Assembly (NCBI GenBank): GCA_964505415.1
Contig: CAZDHW010000003.1
Location: 7,438-71,437, forward strand
Origin: an uncultured bacterium
GTDB lineage: Bacteria > Hydrothermota > Tepidihabitantia > Tepidihabitantales > DTDR01
Direction: 5' to 3'
Length of the DNA: 64,000 nucleotides
The position numbers were made by a program, and so were the translations under genes. Shown here in pieces: positions 38,298 through 44,817 of the stretch (positions are counted from its first letter, which is position 1; each line of letters opens with the position of its first letter). The notes below the pieces were generated by a model. It was not told where the DNA came from and searched no databases. It saw nothing but the letters and a program-made list of their open reading frames with translations.

Positions 38298-40380
38298 AGA
38301 GGTAATTAAAAGGGATGGCAGAATAGTTCCTTTTGAATTAGAAAAGATTGAAAAAGCAATTGAGAAGGCATTAATTGCCACTAATAATTATCAAGCAGGC
38401 TTGGCAAGAAGATTAGCCGAAAAGGTTTTGGTTATTTTGGAAAAAGATTTTGAAAAAGGTCTTCCTCAGGTTGAAGATATTCAAGACCGGGTAGAAAAGG
38501 TATTGATTGAGGAAGGTTATGCTGAGACGGCTAAGGCTTATATTTTATATCGAAAGGAAAGAGAAAAATTAAGGGAGATAAAAACCTTTTTAGGCGTTAA
38601 AGATGATTTAAAATTAAAATTAAACGCCATTACTGTTTTGAGGAATCGTTATCTTTTAAAAAATGAAGAAGGGGAAATAATAGAGACACCAAAGGAACTT
38701 TTTTATCGAGTAGCAAAGGCGATTGGTGAGGTTGACAAATTATATAAAGAGGATGAGAAAAAGACAATCGACCAATTTTTTATGATGATGAGGGAGTTGA
38801 AATTTTTACCCAATTCGCCAACTTTGATGAATGCTGGAACTGAACTGGGCCAACTTTCGGCTTGTTTTGTTTTACCGATTGAAGATTCTATGTATAGTAT
38901 TTTTGAAACATTAAAAAATATGGCTTTAATCCATCAATCGGGTGGGGGAACCGGCTTTTCTTTTTCCAAGATAAGACCAAAAGGCGACATTGTAAAATCA
39001 ACAAAAGGAATTGCCAGTGGTCCAGTTTCCTTTATGAAAGTTTATGATGCGGCTACGGAAGTAGTAAAACAAGGAGGAAAACGCCGAGGTGCTAATATGG
39101 GAATTTTAATTTATAACCATCCGGATATTTTGGAATTCATTACTGCTAAAGCTAAGGAAGGAGTTTTAACTAATTTCAATATTTCGGTGGCAGTAAGTGA
39201 TGAATTTATGGAAAAGGTATTAAAAAATGAAGAATACGATTTAATCAATCCGAGAAACAACCTTGCGGTTGGTCGGCTAAAAGCTAAAAATGTTTTCGAT
39301 TTGATTGTTACCCAAGCTTGGTCAACAGGTGATCCGGGATTAATCTTTATTGACGAGATAAACCGTCATAATCCGACACCCGCTTTAGGAAAGATTGAAG
39401 CCACTAATCCTTGCGGTGAACAACCACTTCTACCTTACGAATCTTGCAATCTTGGTTCAATAAATTTGGCAAAATTGGTAAAATATAAAAATGGTGAACC
39501 TTATTTCGATTGGGAAGAATTTAGAGATTTAATCCATTTAGCGGTTCATTTTTTAGATAATGTGATTGATGCCAATAAATATCCGTTAAAAGAGATTGAA
39601 GAAGTTACTAAAGGAAATAGAAAAATTGGTTTGGGAATAATGGGTTTTGCTGATATGTTAATAAAACTAAGAATTCCTTACGATAGCGAAGAGGCAATAT
39701 TGTGGGCAGAAAAAATCGGTAAATTTTTAACTGAAGAGGCCAGAAGAAAATCGGTAGCAATCGGATTAAAAAGGGGTTCCTTTCCCAATTTTCAAAAAAG
39801 TATTTATTATAATAAATATCCTGCCTTAAGAAACGCCACGGTTACTACTATCGCTCCCACTGGTACTTTAAGCATTATTGCCGGCTGTTCCAGTGGAATT
39901 GAACCTATTTTTGCCTTGTCCTATATCCGGCAAGTTATGGGAGGCATAAGATTATTTGAAATCCAGGAAGATTTTGAAAGGATATTAAAAGAAAGAAATC
40001 TCTATTCAAACGAATTGATAAAAGAGATTTCTCAAGTTGGTTCCATAAGAGATTTTAAAAATCTGCCGGAAGATATAAAAAAAATCTTCGTTACCGCAAT
40101 GGATATTTCGCCAATTTTTCAAGTAAAAATTCAAGCTGCCTTTCAAAAGTATATTGATAATGCAGTTTCTAAGACAGTAAATTTGCCACCCCAAGCAAGC
40201 TTAGAGGATGTGCGAGAAGTTTTTTTGACTGCCTGGCAATTGAAGTGCAAAGGAATTACTGTTTTTCGTTACGGAAGCAAAAAAGAACAAGTTTTCTATA
40301 TTGCTCAACCCGAAACTGGTTTTTTAACTATTCCCGAAGATTATTCTGGTCCTTGTCCCAGCGGTGATTGTGTGAGCTAA
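38284..40380 (+). CDS. nrdJ: Class II (adenosylcobalamin-dependent) ribonucleotide reductase with ATP-cone
   Basis: VIKRDG ATP-cone; [32 protein letters not shown] and TIAPTGT; C-terminal Cys pair CPSGDC. Confidence 0.93.
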
Positions 40381-40709
40381 TTTTTGGGAAATTTTAGCAA
40401 AGCTTTTATAGCAATAATAATTGTCGTATAAAATATTGAGAAGATCAAACTGATAAGCCATTCTTTTTTTATTTCTTTCTTAGAAAAAAAATTTAAACTT
40501 CCTTTAAAAAGTAGAAGAATACCTAATAGATTTGTTAACCAATAAAAAATGATTGTTGCTAAAAAGAAAAATTTTTTATTTATTAAAGAAAACAAAAAAC
40601 CAAAGAAATAGGCAATAGGAAGATTAATGAAAGCATCATTCCAAAAAGAAAAAGGGGATAAAAGATAGCCAATAAAAGCTAATAAACTACCTTTAATTTT
40701 TCTATTCAA
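40377..40709 (-). CDS. Small conserved-looking membrane protein
   Basis: GYLLSPFSFWNDAFINLP motif; 3-4 TM; starts 12 nt after the tmRNA 3' end. Confidence 0.65.
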   Translation of the reverse strand: MNRKIKGSLLAFIGYLLSPFSFWNDAFINLPIAYFFGFLFSLINKKFFFLATIIFYWLTNLLGILLLFKGSLNFFSKKEIKKEWLISLIFSIFYTTIIIAIKALLKFPKN

Positions 40710-40720
40710 AAATTTCTTTA

Positions 40721-41074
40721 TGGAGGCGGCGGGAATCGAACCCGCGTCCGGAGTGTTTCGGGTTTAGGCTCTACATGGTTAGTCGGTTTATTTTTCTCGC
40801 AAGGTTCTTCGCCAACCGACAGGCAGAACCTTGCCAGTTGCCTTTTAAGATCCGGTCTTCCTTCGGCAACTAAAAGAAGACCTTAAGCATCCATTTTTAA
40901 CCTCAACTTAGGTCGGATGCGAACCTAAGCGAGGCTGCTGCTTTTAATTAAGCAGCAAGGGCGTAACTACCAGTGTTGGCAGTTGTTTTTTCCTCTATTT
41001 TTTACGGTAAAATAGAGGAAAACCGCCATGCTCCTAAACCCTGCCATCACCCCGTCGAAACCCATTTCGCCCCC
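40721..41074 (-). ncRNA. ssrA: tmRNA; tag ANTGSYALAA*
   Basis: 5' GGGGGCGAAATGGGTTTCGACGGG; 3' GGACGCGGGTTCGATTCCCGCCGCCTCCA; tag reading frame 40980-40948. Confidence 0.96.
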
Positions 41075-41119
41075 ATATTTATAAATATAATTAAAATTAA
41101 AAAAAATGTCAATAAAAAA

Positions 41120-41743
41120 CTATTTAATAATACCGAGCCAATCCCTTAAAAGAAAAGTGAGCCGGCCAATTAACAATGATATTCTTGCCATTACCGTATA
41201 ACCAAAAGAGGCACCAAAACCAAGCATTATAAAAATAATACCTGAATAGGCAAGATGTTTTAAAACTCCTTTTCTTTCGGTAGAAAAAAAGAAATAGATG
41301 ATGGTAGAAATAACGCCAAAAAAGATGATTATTGAAGAAATACCATTAAAGATATTAGTAAAATTACTTCTTTGTAAAATTGTGGCTTTAGCCTGTTCAA
41401 TAATAGCGGCTTCAATTGTTCGGGGAATAGCTGCTCCCGCACCATAACCAATAACAAAGGCAATAGGAATTCTTACCAACCAAGATAAGCGAGGGATAAA
41501 CCGGGTAAAATATAAGGCACCGATAAAGGCAAATATCAAAAGATATAGTTTTTCACCTTTTGATAGGGGGTTTATTAAACTGGGAACAATAATGCGATGC
41601 CAATAAAAAGTGATTGCGTAGCCATTGGTAATTCCTATAAAAAGATGTTCACAAAAGCGATAAAAAGGATTATCTTTATAAAGAAAGGAAAATATTCCCA
41701 AAGTTAATAAAGCCGCAATCCATACCCAAATATCAGTGCTCAC
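41120..41743 (-). CDS. Uncharacterised multi-TM protein (gene 4 of DUF6754 operon)
   Basis: About 6-7 TM; TLGIFSFLYKDNPFYRFCEH and MLGFGASFGYTVMAR; GTGA overlap with upstream gene. Confidence 0.8.
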   Translation of the reverse strand: MSTDIWVWIAALLTLGIFSFLYKDNPFYRFCEHLFIGITNGYAITFYWHRIIVPSLINPLSKGEKLYLLIFAFIGALYFTRFIPRLSWLVRIPIAFVIGYGAGAAIPRTIEAAIIEQAKATILQRSNFTNIFNGISSIIIFFGVISTIIYFFFSTERKGVLKHLAYSGIIFIMLGFGASFGYTVMARISLLIGRLTFLLRDWLGIIK

Positions 41744-42594
41744 TTTTTCTTTTTATAAAAATAGATAAAATTACCTAAAATGATTAATAAAATTATGGTA
41801 AGATGGGCGGTAGTCTGAGCAGACATTGCTTCGGTTGCTTTTCTTCTTCCTTTTATTTTGAAATTTTCTTCCACCAATTCTTCGTATTCAGCACCACCAC
41901 GCATACCGGCAAGCAGTCCAGTTAATTGTCCAGAATTTAAATAGGGATAATAATCAGCGGCGGAAACCGCAGTAAAGCCGGCGCCAACTTTTACCCCAAA
42001 AGTAGTTTGGGCATAAGTGACATACCACATTGGTATTGCCGAACCAGAAATAGAAACAACGATACCGACATCCCGATAGTTTTTTATTTCTTTTAATAAG
42101 GGAAGGGTATCAGTCCTATTTCCATAATAATCCACGGGAAAGACCTTAGTAATACTTTCGCCCATTCCTAATAAAGGCACTAAGGGCGGTGTTTGCCAAC
42201 CTAAAAAGACATAATCTCTTCCGTAAATAATGCTATCTTCATTATTAATTGCCTTTTCATTAAACTCTTTGGTTACTACTCTTAAGGCATCTTCCGCCAA
42301 TCCCAAACCTAATAAGGTTAATGTTAAAACCCCCACTTTTATTTTTCTACAAAAAGCATGCCTTAATAAGGCAATAGTCATTGGTTGTAATTCGGCTTCC
42401 GTATCCGGAGTATAGTCAACAGAAATTAATAAGGCTTTATCTTTTGGTATCTTATCGATATAGTCAAATAAACTTTTTACTGGTTTCATTGGCAATGGTT
42501 TTAATTTAAAAGGTTTTAAAAGGGGGATAACGATTACTAAGGTTAAAATCAGATAGATATATTTTCTACTTACCGCCAAGCCAACCCCTTTCAA
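41740..42594 (-). CDS. Uncharacterised membrane-anchored protein (gene 3 of DUF6754 operon)
   Basis: N- and C-terminal TM flanking a soluble domain; DYTPDTEAELQPM, YGRDYVFLGW and GLLAGMRGGAEYE. Confidence 0.8.
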   Translation of the reverse strand: MKGVGLAVSRKYIYLILTLVIVIPLLKPFKLKPLPMKPVKSLFDYIDKIPKDKALLISVDYTPDTEAELQPMTIALLRHAFCRKIKVGVLTLTLLGLGLAEDALRVVTKEFNEKAINNEDSIIYGRDYVFLGWQTPPLVPLLGMGESITKVFPVDYYGNRTDTLPLLKEIKNYRDVGIVVSISGSAIPMWYVTYAQTTFGVKVGAGFTAVSAADYYPYLNSGQLTGLLAGMRGGAEYEELVEENFKIKGRRKATEAMSAQTTAHLTIILLIILGNFIYFYKKKK

Positions 42595-43222
42595 TACCTA
42601 AAAGAATTTTTAACGATGTTGATAAGACACCTAAGGTAATACCGAATAACATTCCCCTTTTGGCAGCGGTATTAGGTACATCTAATATCCATTCGGAAAT
42701 ATAAAGAAGTTTTGGTAGCAGTCGGGCTATTGGTGGGACACTGGCAAGCATCACAATGAAAGCAGCTATTAATAACAAAACTGCTTCAAAATTTCTTGCC
42801 CGAAAAGCCCGAAAGGCAGCGGAGGCCATAAAATAGGCAAGCAAAGAAAACATTGTTGCTCCTAAGGGAATTGCCATATTCACATAAATTGTTTGAATAT
42901 CAAAATTGAATTTACCAATCTGCATCTTAATTAATCCCTTTCCATCAATACCTCCAAAAAGACCAATAAAAGCAGTTAAAAAAAGACTGATTAAAGTAAC
43001 ATAACTATACTTAAAAAATTCCCTTTTTCTCTTTATTTTTTCTAAATGGTGACGGATAATACTGCCAACACCTAAAGCCAAAGAGAAGGCAAAAATTATT
43101 CTCAAAGCGGTATTTCGCCATTCATTATCAAAATCTTGAATAATCTTATGGGGAACATAATAGGCAACCATTCCCATTATTCCCATTATTAAACAGATAA
43201 CCAAAGGTAGTTTTACTTTCAT
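42566..43222 (-). CDS. Uncharacterised multi-TM protein (gene 2 of DUF6754 operon)
   Basis: About 6 TM; ATMFSLLAYFMASAAFRAFRAR and WILDVPNTAAKRG; ATGA overlap. Confidence 0.8.
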   Translation of the reverse strand: MKVKLPLVICLIMGIMGMVAYYVPHKIIQDFDNEWRNTALRIIFAFSLALGVGSIIRHHLEKIKRKREFFKYSYVTLISLFLTAFIGLFGGIDGKGLIKMQIGKFNFDIQTIYVNMAIPLGATMFSLLAYFMASAAFRAFRARNFEAVLLLIAAFIVMLASVPPIARLLPKLLYISEWILDVPNTAAKRGMLFGITLGVLSTSLKILLGIERGWLGGK

Positions 43223-44292
43223 TTGATAACTAAATTAAAAATTAAGGCAAAAATAGAAGCAATAATGAGAAAGATTATTATTAAAAGTTTTCCGTAATCC
43301 TGACCTTTTAAAGAACCTAAAAGAATTGGTTCCTTAGAGAGATAAGCAGAAGCGGCGTACAATTCTTCACCAATTAAAGTATAATCACAGGCAACAATAA
43401 AAAATGGCAATTGGGTTATGGAATCGGTGGCGGCAATTTGGATTGCTTGCGTTTGGGCACCAGTTTCCGCCAAGATTAATGATTCGGCATAAAAATAACC
43501 ACAAAAAAAATTGGTTGCTGGTCTTTCTCTCACCATAATACCGTCAACACCAGCCGCATAGGCAAATTGGGAATCAGTTAAATAAAATACTGAATCTTCC
43601 TTAAAGGCATCAGGCCGCCCCACACTGGTATAGGCCTCTTTTACCACTTCCCGAGCAACCGTAAAGACAATGGGATCACTATTAGGAACAATCAATTTTA
43701 TATCATATTGGGCAATCTTTTTTGCCACTTCCCCTAAAATATTTAAAGCGGCAATTGTGGCTACATCGGACATACCACTTAAACCTGGGACAAATAAGAC
43801 TGGTTTTCCCATCTCAGTTGCTCGACCAACCGCCTCTTCAACGGCACTTAATCCGGGAATCCTGCGGATAAAAAGTTCAATTTTTCTTGATTTTTTAATA
43901 AAATACAAAATTAAAAAACCAAAGATAAAAAATGATAACAAAACAATCAACTTACTTTTATTAAACCATTGGGGATAACTTCTTGCCCAATTAGAAACAA
44001 AAGAAAAAACCTTTATTTTTCCCTTTACACTTCCTACTTGATAACAATAACTTATTCCGTCAATAGTTTTATCATCAACAAATTGATTTCTCTTCGGACC
44101 AACAAAACCAATTTTATAAAAAGTATCTTCCTTTTCGCTTCTTCTTAATATCTCATAACCATCTAAAATTGAATCCGCAGGTGATAAATCCCAAGTGATT
44201 AAAATTTTATTACCACCATCATTAGGGTTATCAACAGCTTTTACATTTTTTGGTGGCTCAATTAAAAGCGGGAAAAGAAAAAACAAAACCAT
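43219..44292 (-). CDS. FN3-like domain + DUF6754 domain membrane protein
   Basis: FN3-like N-term (DNPNDGG...ITW..GYEILR); IRRIPGLSAVEEAVGRATEMGKPV and DYTLIGEELYAASAYLS. Confidence 0.8.
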   Translation of the reverse strand: MVLFFLFPLLIEPPKNVKAVDNPNDGGNKILITWDLSPADSILDGYEILRRSEKEDTFYKIGFVGPKRNQFVDDKTIDGISYCYQVGSVKGKIKVFSFVSNWARSYPQWFNKSKLIVLLSFFIFGFLILYFIKKSRKIELFIRRIPGLSAVEEAVGRATEMGKPVLFVPGLSGMSDVATIAALNILGEVAKKIAQYDIKLIVPNSDPIVFTVAREVVKEAYTSVGRPDAFKEDSVFYLTDSQFAYAAGVDGIMVRERPATNFFCGYFYAESLILAETGAQTQAIQIAATDSITQLPFFIVACDYTLIGEELYAASAYLSKEPILLGSLKGQDYGKLLIIIFLIIASIFALIFNLVIK

Positions 44293-44394
44293 TTAAGAAT
44301 TATAAAATCTCTTAATAAAAATTCAAGTTAAAAATATTTGACTTTAACCAAATATTAAATATAATTTTTAAAAACAACATTAAAAGGAGGAAAG

Positions 44395-44817
44395 ATGAAA
44401 GCATCAAAAGAATTGTTGGAAATGTTAAATCAAGCAATTGCTCGGGAATTACAAGTATCTATTCAATATATGTGGCAACATGTCCAATGGAAAGGAGTTA
44501 AAGGTTTTAGTGTTAAAGATGAACTAAAAAAAATTGCCATTACCGAAATGAAACATGCGGAAGCTATTGCCGAGAGATTAGTTTATCTTGGTGGAGTGCC
44601 AACAACTAAACCTGAGCCAATTTTTGTTGGCAACACCTTAAAAGAGATGTTAGAACAAGATAAGAAAGATGAGGAGAACGCCATTATTCTTTACAAAAAG
44701 ATAATCGAAAAAGCCCGGGCGGAAAACGATGAGACCACAAAAAGACTGTTTGAAAGCATCTTAGCCGATGAAGAAGAACATCACGATATATTTACTTCCC
44801 TTTTAGAAGAAATTTAA
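44395..44817 (+). CDS. Ferritin-like/bacterioferritin-family protein
   Basis: E..QY, EMKHAE, EENA..Y and DEEEH diiron ligands. Confidence 0.88.
   Translation: MKASKELLEMLNQAIARELQVSIQYMWQHVQWKGVKGFSVKDELKKIAITEMKHAEAIAERLVYLGGVPTTKPEPIFVGNTLKEMLEQDKKDEENAIILYKKIIEKARAENDETTKRLFESILADEEEHHDIFTSLLEEI

Follow-up and report, generated by a model that had tools for sequence, protein, structure and literature searches.

Four overlapping open reading frames (ORFs) on the minus strand of the DNA analyzed here encode the membrane proteins that we call A, B, C and D. The DNA, referred to as the window, is a 64,000-nucleotide stretch of contig CAZDHW010000003.1 (assembly GCA_964505415.1) from an uncultured bacterium. 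An earlier note made from the sequence alone had described four ORFs with overlaps of 4, 29 and 4 nucleotides (nt) along A-B-C-D, and the ORF list bears this out. It had also proposed the layout of the products, namely a fibronectin type III (Fn3) domain, a transmembrane (TM) segment, a DUF6754 domain and a second TM segment in A, about six TM segments in B, a soluble domain between two TM segments in C, and about six to seven TM segments in D. The Pfam match, a structural model of A and hydropathy all agree with this layout. The features of the locus are listed here.

43219..44292, minus strand: gene A, ORF of 357 amino acids (aa) with leader, Fn3, TM, DUF6754 and TM
42566..43222, minus strand: gene B, ORF of 218 aa with six TM segments
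41740..42579, minus strand: gene C, ORF of 279 aa from the second TTG (or 284 aa from 42594)
41120..41743, minus strand: gene D, ORF of 207 aa with about six TM segments
43978..44256, minus strand: Fn3 ectodomain of A, residues 13-105, by model, fold match and titin Fn3 profile match
43333..43875, minus strand: DUF6754 alpha/beta domain of A, residues 140-320, by model and alignments
44299..44326, minus strand: promoter-like TTGAAT-16-TATAAT, by consensus scan, with 10 of 12 positions matching

A conserved four-protein membrane unit

The four genes recur together in other genomes. A scan with one genome per species gave at least 624 matching stretches, of which 611 of 624 encode a relative of A among the matches listed, and 77 loci were kept. 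These loci contain 91 A-type ORFs, 68 of them with at least 2300 nt downstream and hence testable for gene order. Under a strict filter, B, C and D follow A in this order in 61 of the 68 testable relatives, with median gaps in the relatives' loci of 10, -1 and 2 nt for A-B, B-C and C-D. Six of the seven remaining cases also hold B through D and are explained by split hits, locus ends or a duplicated C gene. A-B-C-D is one conserved four-protein membrane unit, and the co-occurrence of the genes elsewhere that the earlier note had anticipated is confirmed. Double or triple tandem cassettes are common among the loci; one locus has three cassettes in tandem (L038 239-9243), and another carries a duplicated C gene inside a single cassette (L080 7900-9545).

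The distribution of the unit is broad. In WOR-3, the phylum of the window (labelled Caldifarciminota in the tree), the Pfam family of DUF6754, PF20539, was matched in 135 of 151 genomes and in 75 of 76 genera, and 115 of the 135 positive genomes have two to six matches (manual count). The titles of records with relatives of A name WOR-3, Stahlbacteria, Edwardsbacteria, Latescibacterota, Eisenbacteria, Zixiibacteriota, CSSED10-310, Ignavibacteriales, Acidobacteriota, Gemmatimonas, Scalindua, Brocadiaceae and Desulfuromonadaceae. Long forms of A (828 at E ≤ 0.001) are found in records of Vulcanimicrobiota, Eremiobacterota, Armatimonadetes and Dependentiae. PF20539 proteins are named 'DUF6754 domain-containing' or 'fibronectin type III domain-containing' by NCBI; the family is catalogued only, and a literature search, with subscription journals and supplements outside its reach, found no paper on DUF6754 or PF20539, so the description of DUF6754 as uncharacterized stands. 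There is no Pfam or NCBIfam family for B, C or D, and nothing below E 0.001 was found in A-D except DUF6754. Searches of solved structures with profiles of B, C and D returned nothing credible (one hit at E 3.6 for B, a best E of 0.45 for C, and 0 hits for D). No protein of the unit matched a known transporter family (ATP-binding cassette [ABC], energy-coupling factor [ECF], tripartite ATP-independent periplasmic [TRAP], phosphotransferase system [PTS], major facilitator superfamily [MFS] or others) in Pfam or NCBIfam, and the solved-structure profile searches likewise gave no such match, in keeping with the undescribed system that the earlier note had proposed. The unit is real, widespread, uncharacterized and far from any known kind.

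Protein A is a full member of the DUF6754 family, matching PF20539 with an E value of 1.5e-117 and 391.7 bits (cut-off 27) over residues 107-351 and positions 3-248 of the 257 in the model, and its relatives share the same layout of Fn3, TM, domain and TM. In the AlphaFold model of the full-length protein (predicted local distance difference test [pLDDT] 93.5), a beta domain (residues 15-96) is followed by a helix (112-137), a six-stranded alpha/beta domain (146-319) and a second helix (322-352). The N-terminal domain is Fn3 by fold (2nzi_B, Z 14.0, 94 residues aligned, root-mean-square deviation [rmsd] 2.1), and titin Fn3 domains were matched when the profile of A was compared with solved structures; the Pfam scan did not report PF00041 (Fn3) for the window protein. 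A short hydrophobic leader stands at the N-terminus, ahead of the exported Fn3 domain. Because the net charge flanking TM1 is +3.4 after the segment versus +0.15 before it (mean of 93 relatives), the DUF6754 domain is predicted to face the cytoplasm. The ectodomain is swappable; among relatives of A, an OmpA-like insert (P0066), extra Fn3 domains or pyrroloquinoline quinone (PQQ)-type beta-propellers take its place or lengthen it. The DUF6754 domain has a mean identity of 68.5% to 90 rows from other genomes of several phyla.

Since Fn3 matches filled both fold lists for full-length A, the DUF6754 domain was modelled alone, yielding a six-stranded Rossmann-like sandwich (pLDDT 83.2, predicted TM-score [pTM] 0.82). 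Foldseek gave a single hit at E ≤ 0.001, the molybdenum cofactor (Moco) carrier protein 2iz5_D (E 7.3e-4, TM-scores 0.43/0.51, rmsd 8.3). The VIA-align list includes KtrC 6i8v_A (Z 10.6, 114 residues aligned, rmsd 2.6), Sir2A and LpxB (Z 10.3 each), transhydrogenase domain III (Z 8.8) and many RCK/KTN domains, which occupy 11 of its 50 rows (manual count). When VIA-align was applied to Foldseek's matches, scores ran from Z 11.2 for Sir2Af2 1yc2_D (144 residues aligned, rmsd 3.5) to Z 8.9 at rank 50; the LOG/Moco-carrier (SLOG-type) chains lie outside the top 50 VIA-align rows. Because these lists are flat, we assign the domain to no family, and the model points to a generic Rossmann-like fold of nucleotide-binding type.

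The other three proteins are defined mainly by their membrane segments. Hydropathy gives B six TM segments, with conserved positively charged loops 2-3 and 4-5 (AYRAFRAR) in the alignment, and flanking charge among the relatives indicates an N-in, C-in topology. C has a hydrophobic segment at each end, with KKKK after the C-terminal one, and an alpha/beta-type domain of ~220 aa between them. Across 83 relatives of C the net charge is +1.8 before TM1 and +3.6 after TM2, compared with +0.7 and +0.9 on the domain side; both ends are thus cytoplasmic by charge, and the domain would therefore face outward. D has about six TM segments by hydropathy. Its DNPFY..EH segment, which follows TM1, contains the invariant N25 and E32, and its last TM segment has a conserved FGASFGYTVMAR. 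The acidic, motif-like segments noticed at the outset are all present on invariant or nearly invariant alignment columns: GRATE at residue 156 and IGEELYAA at residue 307 of A, GGAEYE at residue 233 of C, and DNPFYRFCEH at residue 24 of D. A regular-expression scan detected no Walker A, CxxC, CxxCH or GxGxxG motif in A, B, C or D, in agreement with the reported lack of ATPase, Fe-S and heme motifs, and A contains no histidine at all. ESM Atlas clusters that resemble C and D, by feature similarity only, are unnamed and commonest in Chloroflexota, Planctomycetota, Bacillota and Bathyarchaeota.

Two structural proposals of the earlier note found no support. A pseudo-symmetric 2+2 complex is not supported by profile-profile comparison with hhalign, which gives probabilities of 2.4% for genes A and C and 0.9% for genes B and D. 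Nor do the soluble domains of A and C appear to be two equivalent anchored alpha/beta domains, because flanking charge (83-93 relatives) places them on opposite sides of the membrane, DUF6754 in the cytoplasm and the domain of C outside.

The genome of the window, 1.5 Mb in size, carries three A-D cassettes. In a quick tree the three copies are split among three distinct clades that all contain sequences from other genomes too, and the copies are therefore old paralogs; the window copy groups with L006, L008 and L032 (support 99), and the contig-7 copy lies across the midpoint root. Identity among the three paralogs is highest in the DUF6754 domain (61-79%), followed by D (47-58%), B (41-56%) and the domain of C (40-47%), and is lowest in the Fn3 domain of A (27-30%). 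This gradient, together with the swappable ectodomains, suggests a constant cytoplasmic face and variable outer faces. The second cassette (L004 18-5186, contig 5) is preceded by a 1722-aa ORF, with a 97-aa ORF between them; the sequence of the larger ORF may resemble that of the type IX secretion system (T9SS) protein SprA.

A GlmL-like ATPase, c1 and c4 as probable partners

The flanking ORFs of the 77 loci were clustered and representatives were scanned against Pfam. A protein of ~375 aa, c1, clusters with the unit in 16 of the 77 loci, directly upstream on the same strand in 14 and divergently in 2. A ~600-aa protein of the MutL/GlmL family (PF13941) accompanies the unit in 13 of the loci and a small protein, c4 (108-137 aa), in 7. 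Outside WOR-3 the gene order is c4, GlmL-like, c1 and then A-B-C-D, and the loci with such adjacency belong to Zixiibacteriota, Latescibacterota, Scalindua, Acidobacteriota, Gemmatimonas, Eisenbacteria and a Desulfuromonadaceae bin. The window genome contains one GlmL-like match (615 aa; 67% identity to the Scalindua query), located outside the window, and one c1 match (56% identity to the Scalindua query), located on a different contig. Its GlmL-like protein covers the whole PF13941 model with 444 bits. The genes for c4 (101 aa) and the GlmL-like protein come after gcvT-H-PA-PB, on the window's contig but outside the window. At this locus (L085 4795-8316, contig 3) the c4/GlmL-like pair overlaps the end of gcvPB by 10 nt and is followed, again with an overlap, by queF and a gene for a Vut_1-type transporter; given the overlaps with gcvPB and queF, the pair forms part of a mixed operon that begins with the glycine cleavage genes upstream of it.

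Unit and partners also occur together at the level of whole genomes. Among the 151 WOR-3 genomes, 131 have both the unit and c1, 15 have neither, four have the unit only and one has c1 only, and exactly one c1 match is found in 118 of the 132 genomes with c1. All 15 genomes with neither belong to a single genus (g33, e.g. G011, G025, G047 and G107; 16 genomes sampled). The GlmL-like gene is absent from the four g33 genomes examined (94-95% completeness), RnfA/E are still present in the genus (G011, G025), and in its sister genus the GlmL-like gene adjoins c1. As the unit and c1 were not found in this one whole genus, it provides a natural comparison for function, through natural loss. Of the 121 Planctomycetota genomes, 32 have the unit; c1 and the GlmL-like gene were matched in one and the same set of 30 genomes, all of them among the 32. 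Counted by unit and c1, 30 genomes have both, two the unit only, none c1 only, and 89 neither, with c1 or the GlmL-like gene in 0 of the 89 unit-negative genomes. The pattern is consistent both where the unit is near-universal (WOR-3) and where it is patchy (Planctomycetota), and the unit very probably belongs to a larger system that also includes c1 and the GlmL-like protein.

The GlmL-like protein of the window genome is itself well conserved, with 59-69% identity to the best match in each of the 30 positive Planctomycetota genomes. It retains DCGSTTTK, DIGGATTD and GSGG segments, which we take to be nucleotide-binding motifs of the actin/Hsp70/sugar-kinase fold; a phmmer search against solved structures gave 0 hits. 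In common with GlmL/MutL, the partner matches the whole PF13941 model, keeps actin-fold-type motifs and has a small adjacent protein. It differs from GlmL in being ~150 aa longer and in its link to membrane proteins instead, and no B12 mutase gene was found in the 77 clustered loci. Assignment to the GlmL equivalog NF040745 was rejected for copies from two other phyla, which score 229.8 and 229.2 bits against a cut-off of 475; against further NCBI GlmL-type cut-offs such copies reached 216.5 versus 600 and 169 versus 204. The literature search found nothing on PF13941 or GlmL with ASKHA, and nothing relevant, among the papers listed, on a membrane link of GlmL or RnfC or on WOR-3 Fn3 complexes. 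PADLOC reported 0 anti-phage defence families for the seven proteins (A-D, c1, GlmL-like and c4).

For c1, a weak match to barrel-sandwich domains of RnfC_N/NqrA_N type was obtained (RnfC_N in 24 of 28 members, best E 1.3e-6; NQRA_N in 8 of 28), the profile search of solved structures yielded no more than weak matches to stretches of KOW (NusG, E 0.016) and RraA-like (E 0.036) type, and many glycine motifs are invariant. The protein is predicted to comprise a barrel-sandwich domain, an alpha/beta domain and a KOW-like domain. Some genomes hold a second, diverged pair, in which a GlmL-like protein at 45-49% identity stands beside a c1-like stretch (G018:C118:3385-6187; G272:C308, G179:C4, G210:C106, G166:C95 and G203:C19), and several of these c1-like matches contain in-frame TGA, TAG or TAA stops. 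Either a related sister system or split genes may account for this second pair.

Proposed function and alternatives

Our preferred reading, with a probability of roughly 0.4, is that A-D is one of three exchangeable membrane modules of a translocator driven by an actin-fold ATPase. We infer docking on DUF6754, coupling to ATP and transport along the following lines. A cytoplasmic engine encoded elsewhere in the genome, consisting of the GlmL-like ATPase (615 aa), c4 (101 aa) and c1 (375 aa), would dock on the cytoplasmic DUF6754 domain of A, whose Rossmann-like sequence is nearly invariant. Binding and hydrolysis of ATP would then shift the two TM helices of A against polytopic B and D, and a substrate, captured outside by the variable parts (the Fn3 domain of A and the outward domain of C), would be driven across the membrane. 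Each paralogous module would have substrates of its own. In its logic only, this arrangement resembles ECF transporters and the PTS, in which one cytoplasmic engine serves several divergent membrane modules per genome; it differs from them in that no sequence or fold relation was found and in that the A-D system has no P-loop ATPase or phosphotransfer motif.

Several points weigh against a translocator of this kind. We know of no transporter driven by an actin-fold ATPase, and GlmL and its known relatives, including EutA and DdrAB, are described as chaperone-like accessory or reactivase proteins of B12 enzymes. In the consensus lines of B and D, no buried acidic residue of the kind found at ion or substrate sites stands out as conserved. 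The unit occurs without a c1 match in four WOR-3 genomes (G060, G103 and G150, 94% complete, and G115, 75% complete) and in the Planctomycetota genomes G214 and G240. The co-occurring genomes are kin rather than independent samples and the WOR-3 absence is a single loss event, so the co-occurrence counts overstate the number of events. Solo copies of A, with no B, C or D at a profile E ≤ 1e-3, were found in L029 (5938-7062), L009 (2451-3569) and L041 (5965-7044), of which L009 and L041 have less downstream DNA than the 2300 nt that the gene-order test required. The genome with the solo A of L029 also carries complete cassettes (L018 and L061).

The same components could serve force or signal coupling in place of transport, with the ATPase acting by way of A-D on partners in the periplasm or at the surface, which the ectodomains would bind and which would be moved or held in place. 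Analogies are mechanotransmission of the FtsEX or MacB type and actin-like PilM with its PilNO platform. The ectodomains of A are of protein- or wall-binding types (Fn3, the OmpA-like insert in P0066, PQQ beta-propellers), the invariant part of the unit is cytoplasmic, 11 of the 77 loci have T9SS-tailed FG-GAP proteins close to the unit, and the second cassette of this genome follows the possibly SprA-like ORF, all of which would suit a coupler. These T9SS-cargo neighbors are, however, found on either side and on either strand, and they are common in these genomes, so their proximity may be due to chance. Two polytopic subunits and an outward alpha/beta domain also exceed the needs of a simple anchor, and if the D-like ESM Atlas clusters commonest in Bacillota and Bathyarchaeota, grouped by feature similarity only, are true relatives, a role at the outer membrane or peptidoglycan would not be general. 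On balance, we consider a coupler unlikely. The kinship of the ATPase raises another possibility, namely a membrane-tethered complex in which DUF6754 binds a nucleotide-type ligand or cofactor and the GlmL-like protein serves as an ATP-dependent chaperone or reactivase, so that A-D would work not as an importer but as an enzyme or an energy-converting device. Consistent with this idea are the 444-bit match of the partner to PF13941, its pairing with a 101-aa neighbor, reminiscent of the large and small subunits DdrA and DdrB, the nearness of DUF6754 to nucleotide- or cofactor-binding Rossmann-like folds (2iz5_D, 1yc2_D, 6i8v_A and transhydrogenase domain III at Z 8.8-9.1), and the RnfC_N/NqrA_N-type domain of c1 in 24 of 28 members. 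Yet the list of fold matches is flat (Z 11.2 to 8.9 over 50 rows, with one Foldseek hit at E ≤ 0.001), GxGxxG, a Cys cluster and a His ligand are all missing, A being devoid of His, and the GlmL-like proteins of two other phyla score 229.8 against the equivalog cut-off of 475. The two to six divergent copies per genome, with their variable outer domains, are better suited to specificity modules than to one enzyme. Such a complex seems quite unlikely to us.

The importer of peptides or amino acids that the earlier note held plausible would be ATPase-free and ion-driven, and a version in which A-D alone is a self-contained importer powered by an ion gradient, with the Rossmann-like domain only as a regulator, can be set against the translocator. 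RCK domains regulate K+ transporters in this manner, RCK/KTN domains fill 11 of the 50 fold-match rows, in this genome the GlmL-like and c1 genes lie away from the unit, and the six genomes named above carry it without a c1 match. The absence of an ATPase motif from A-D, which speaks for this reading, stands; the proposal as a whole is weakened by the GlmL-like actin-fold ATPase and c1, whose co-occurrence with the unit is near-perfect and whose genes often adjoin it. The most conserved part of the unit is, moreover, its cytoplasmic domain and not the membrane core, and no relation to secondary transporter families was found in Pfam or NCBIfam. A self-contained importer is very unlikely in our estimation.

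Comparison with characterized membrane systems reveals partial likenesses. In the RCK/KTN K+ systems (KtrAB, TrkAH and MthK) a cytoplasmic Rossmann-like domain is attached to a membrane part, as here, and the MthK RCK domain (2aej_A) and KtrC (6i8v_A) align to DUF6754 with Z 10.4 and 10.6. Classification of DUF6754 as RCK/KTN (TrkA-N) was rejected: GxGxxG is absent, there is no Pfam TrkA_N match, and B and D match no Pfam K+ transporter family. Rnf and Nqr share with this system the RnfC_N/NqrA_N-like domain of c1, and B and D are like RnfA/RnfE in size and in number of TM segments. They differ in that A-D has no Fe-S or flavin-attachment motifs and in that the genome has its own RnfA/E elsewhere. 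As candidates for RnfA/E (PF02508), B and D were discarded, with hhalign probabilities of 0.7% and 0.5% against an alignment of 46 RnfA/E sequences and no Pfam hit at E ≤ 1. The PntB transhydrogenase offers a membrane-tethered, six-stranded Rossmann-like domain III, and such domains align to DUF6754 with Z 8.8 (4j16_C), 9.1 (2fsv_C, 142 residues aligned, rmsd 3.4) and 9.0 (1d4o), values that are low in a flat list; unlike PntB, A-D has no Pfam PNTB match, and DUF6754 sits between two single helices.

If the translocator reading is correct, the unit would be part of a widespread, strongly conserved membrane machine without a characterized relative, and the coupling of an actin-fold ATPase to polytopic proteins would constitute a new energy-coupling principle in transport or transmembrane mechanics. 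The three cassettes and the engine genes take up ~13 kb of the 1.5 Mb genome. Genes now labelled 'hypothetical', thousands of them, would also gain a role in WOR-3, Zixiibacteriota, Latescibacterota, anammox Planctomycetota and other groups. A more general proposal, possible but doubtful, is a new class of primary active membrane machine in which an actin-fold ATPase with c1 and c4 powers interchangeable A-D modules that translocate different substrates or transmit force across the cytoplasmic membrane, in which the GlmL-like ATPase replaces a P-loop, P-type or rotary ATPase, and which would be close to universal in WOR-3 and also present in many uncultured bacterial phyla and possibly in archaea. 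A cofactor-handling or envelope-tethering complex would still be a new system.

Gene boundaries and the neighboring tmRNA gene

The start of gene C is probably the second TTG, at 42579. On the long ORF the 29-nt overlap with B reported earlier is present; from the second TTG it would probably be 14 nt. This assignment is favored because codon 6 of the long form is a stop in both of the closest relatives, because the ESM Atlas record for C begins at residue 6 of the long form, and because AAAGGGG, read by eye, lies 5 nt upstream of the second TTG. Ahead of gene A, the single promoter proposed in the earlier note corresponds to the TTGAAT-16-TATAAT site, which was found as a consensus match only; the region contains 22 promoter-like sites by consensus scan versus 14.5 ± 4.0 in shuffles, and the site of gene A alone therefore proves little. 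Its -10 hexamer ends 6 nt ahead of the ATG of gene A, and 44293-44326 shows nothing that looks like a Shine-Dalgarno sequence. Because the hexamer is only 6 nt from the ATG, the mRNA of gene A may be leaderless, with a start at 44292.

Terminator-like sites in the region amount to three weak ones, compared with 4.1 ± 2.7 in shuffles, and none lies between the genes; the terminator scan also detected none between gene D and the neighboring transfer-messenger RNA (tmRNA) gene. An Rfam scan of 40300-44500 returned this tmRNA as its sole match. The tmRNA gene (ssrA, 40718-41074, minus strand; RF00023, 192 bits) lies 45 nt downstream of D, is not part of the A-D unit, and has a promoter-like site of its own, TTGACA-17-TATATT, at 41112-41084 on the minus strand.

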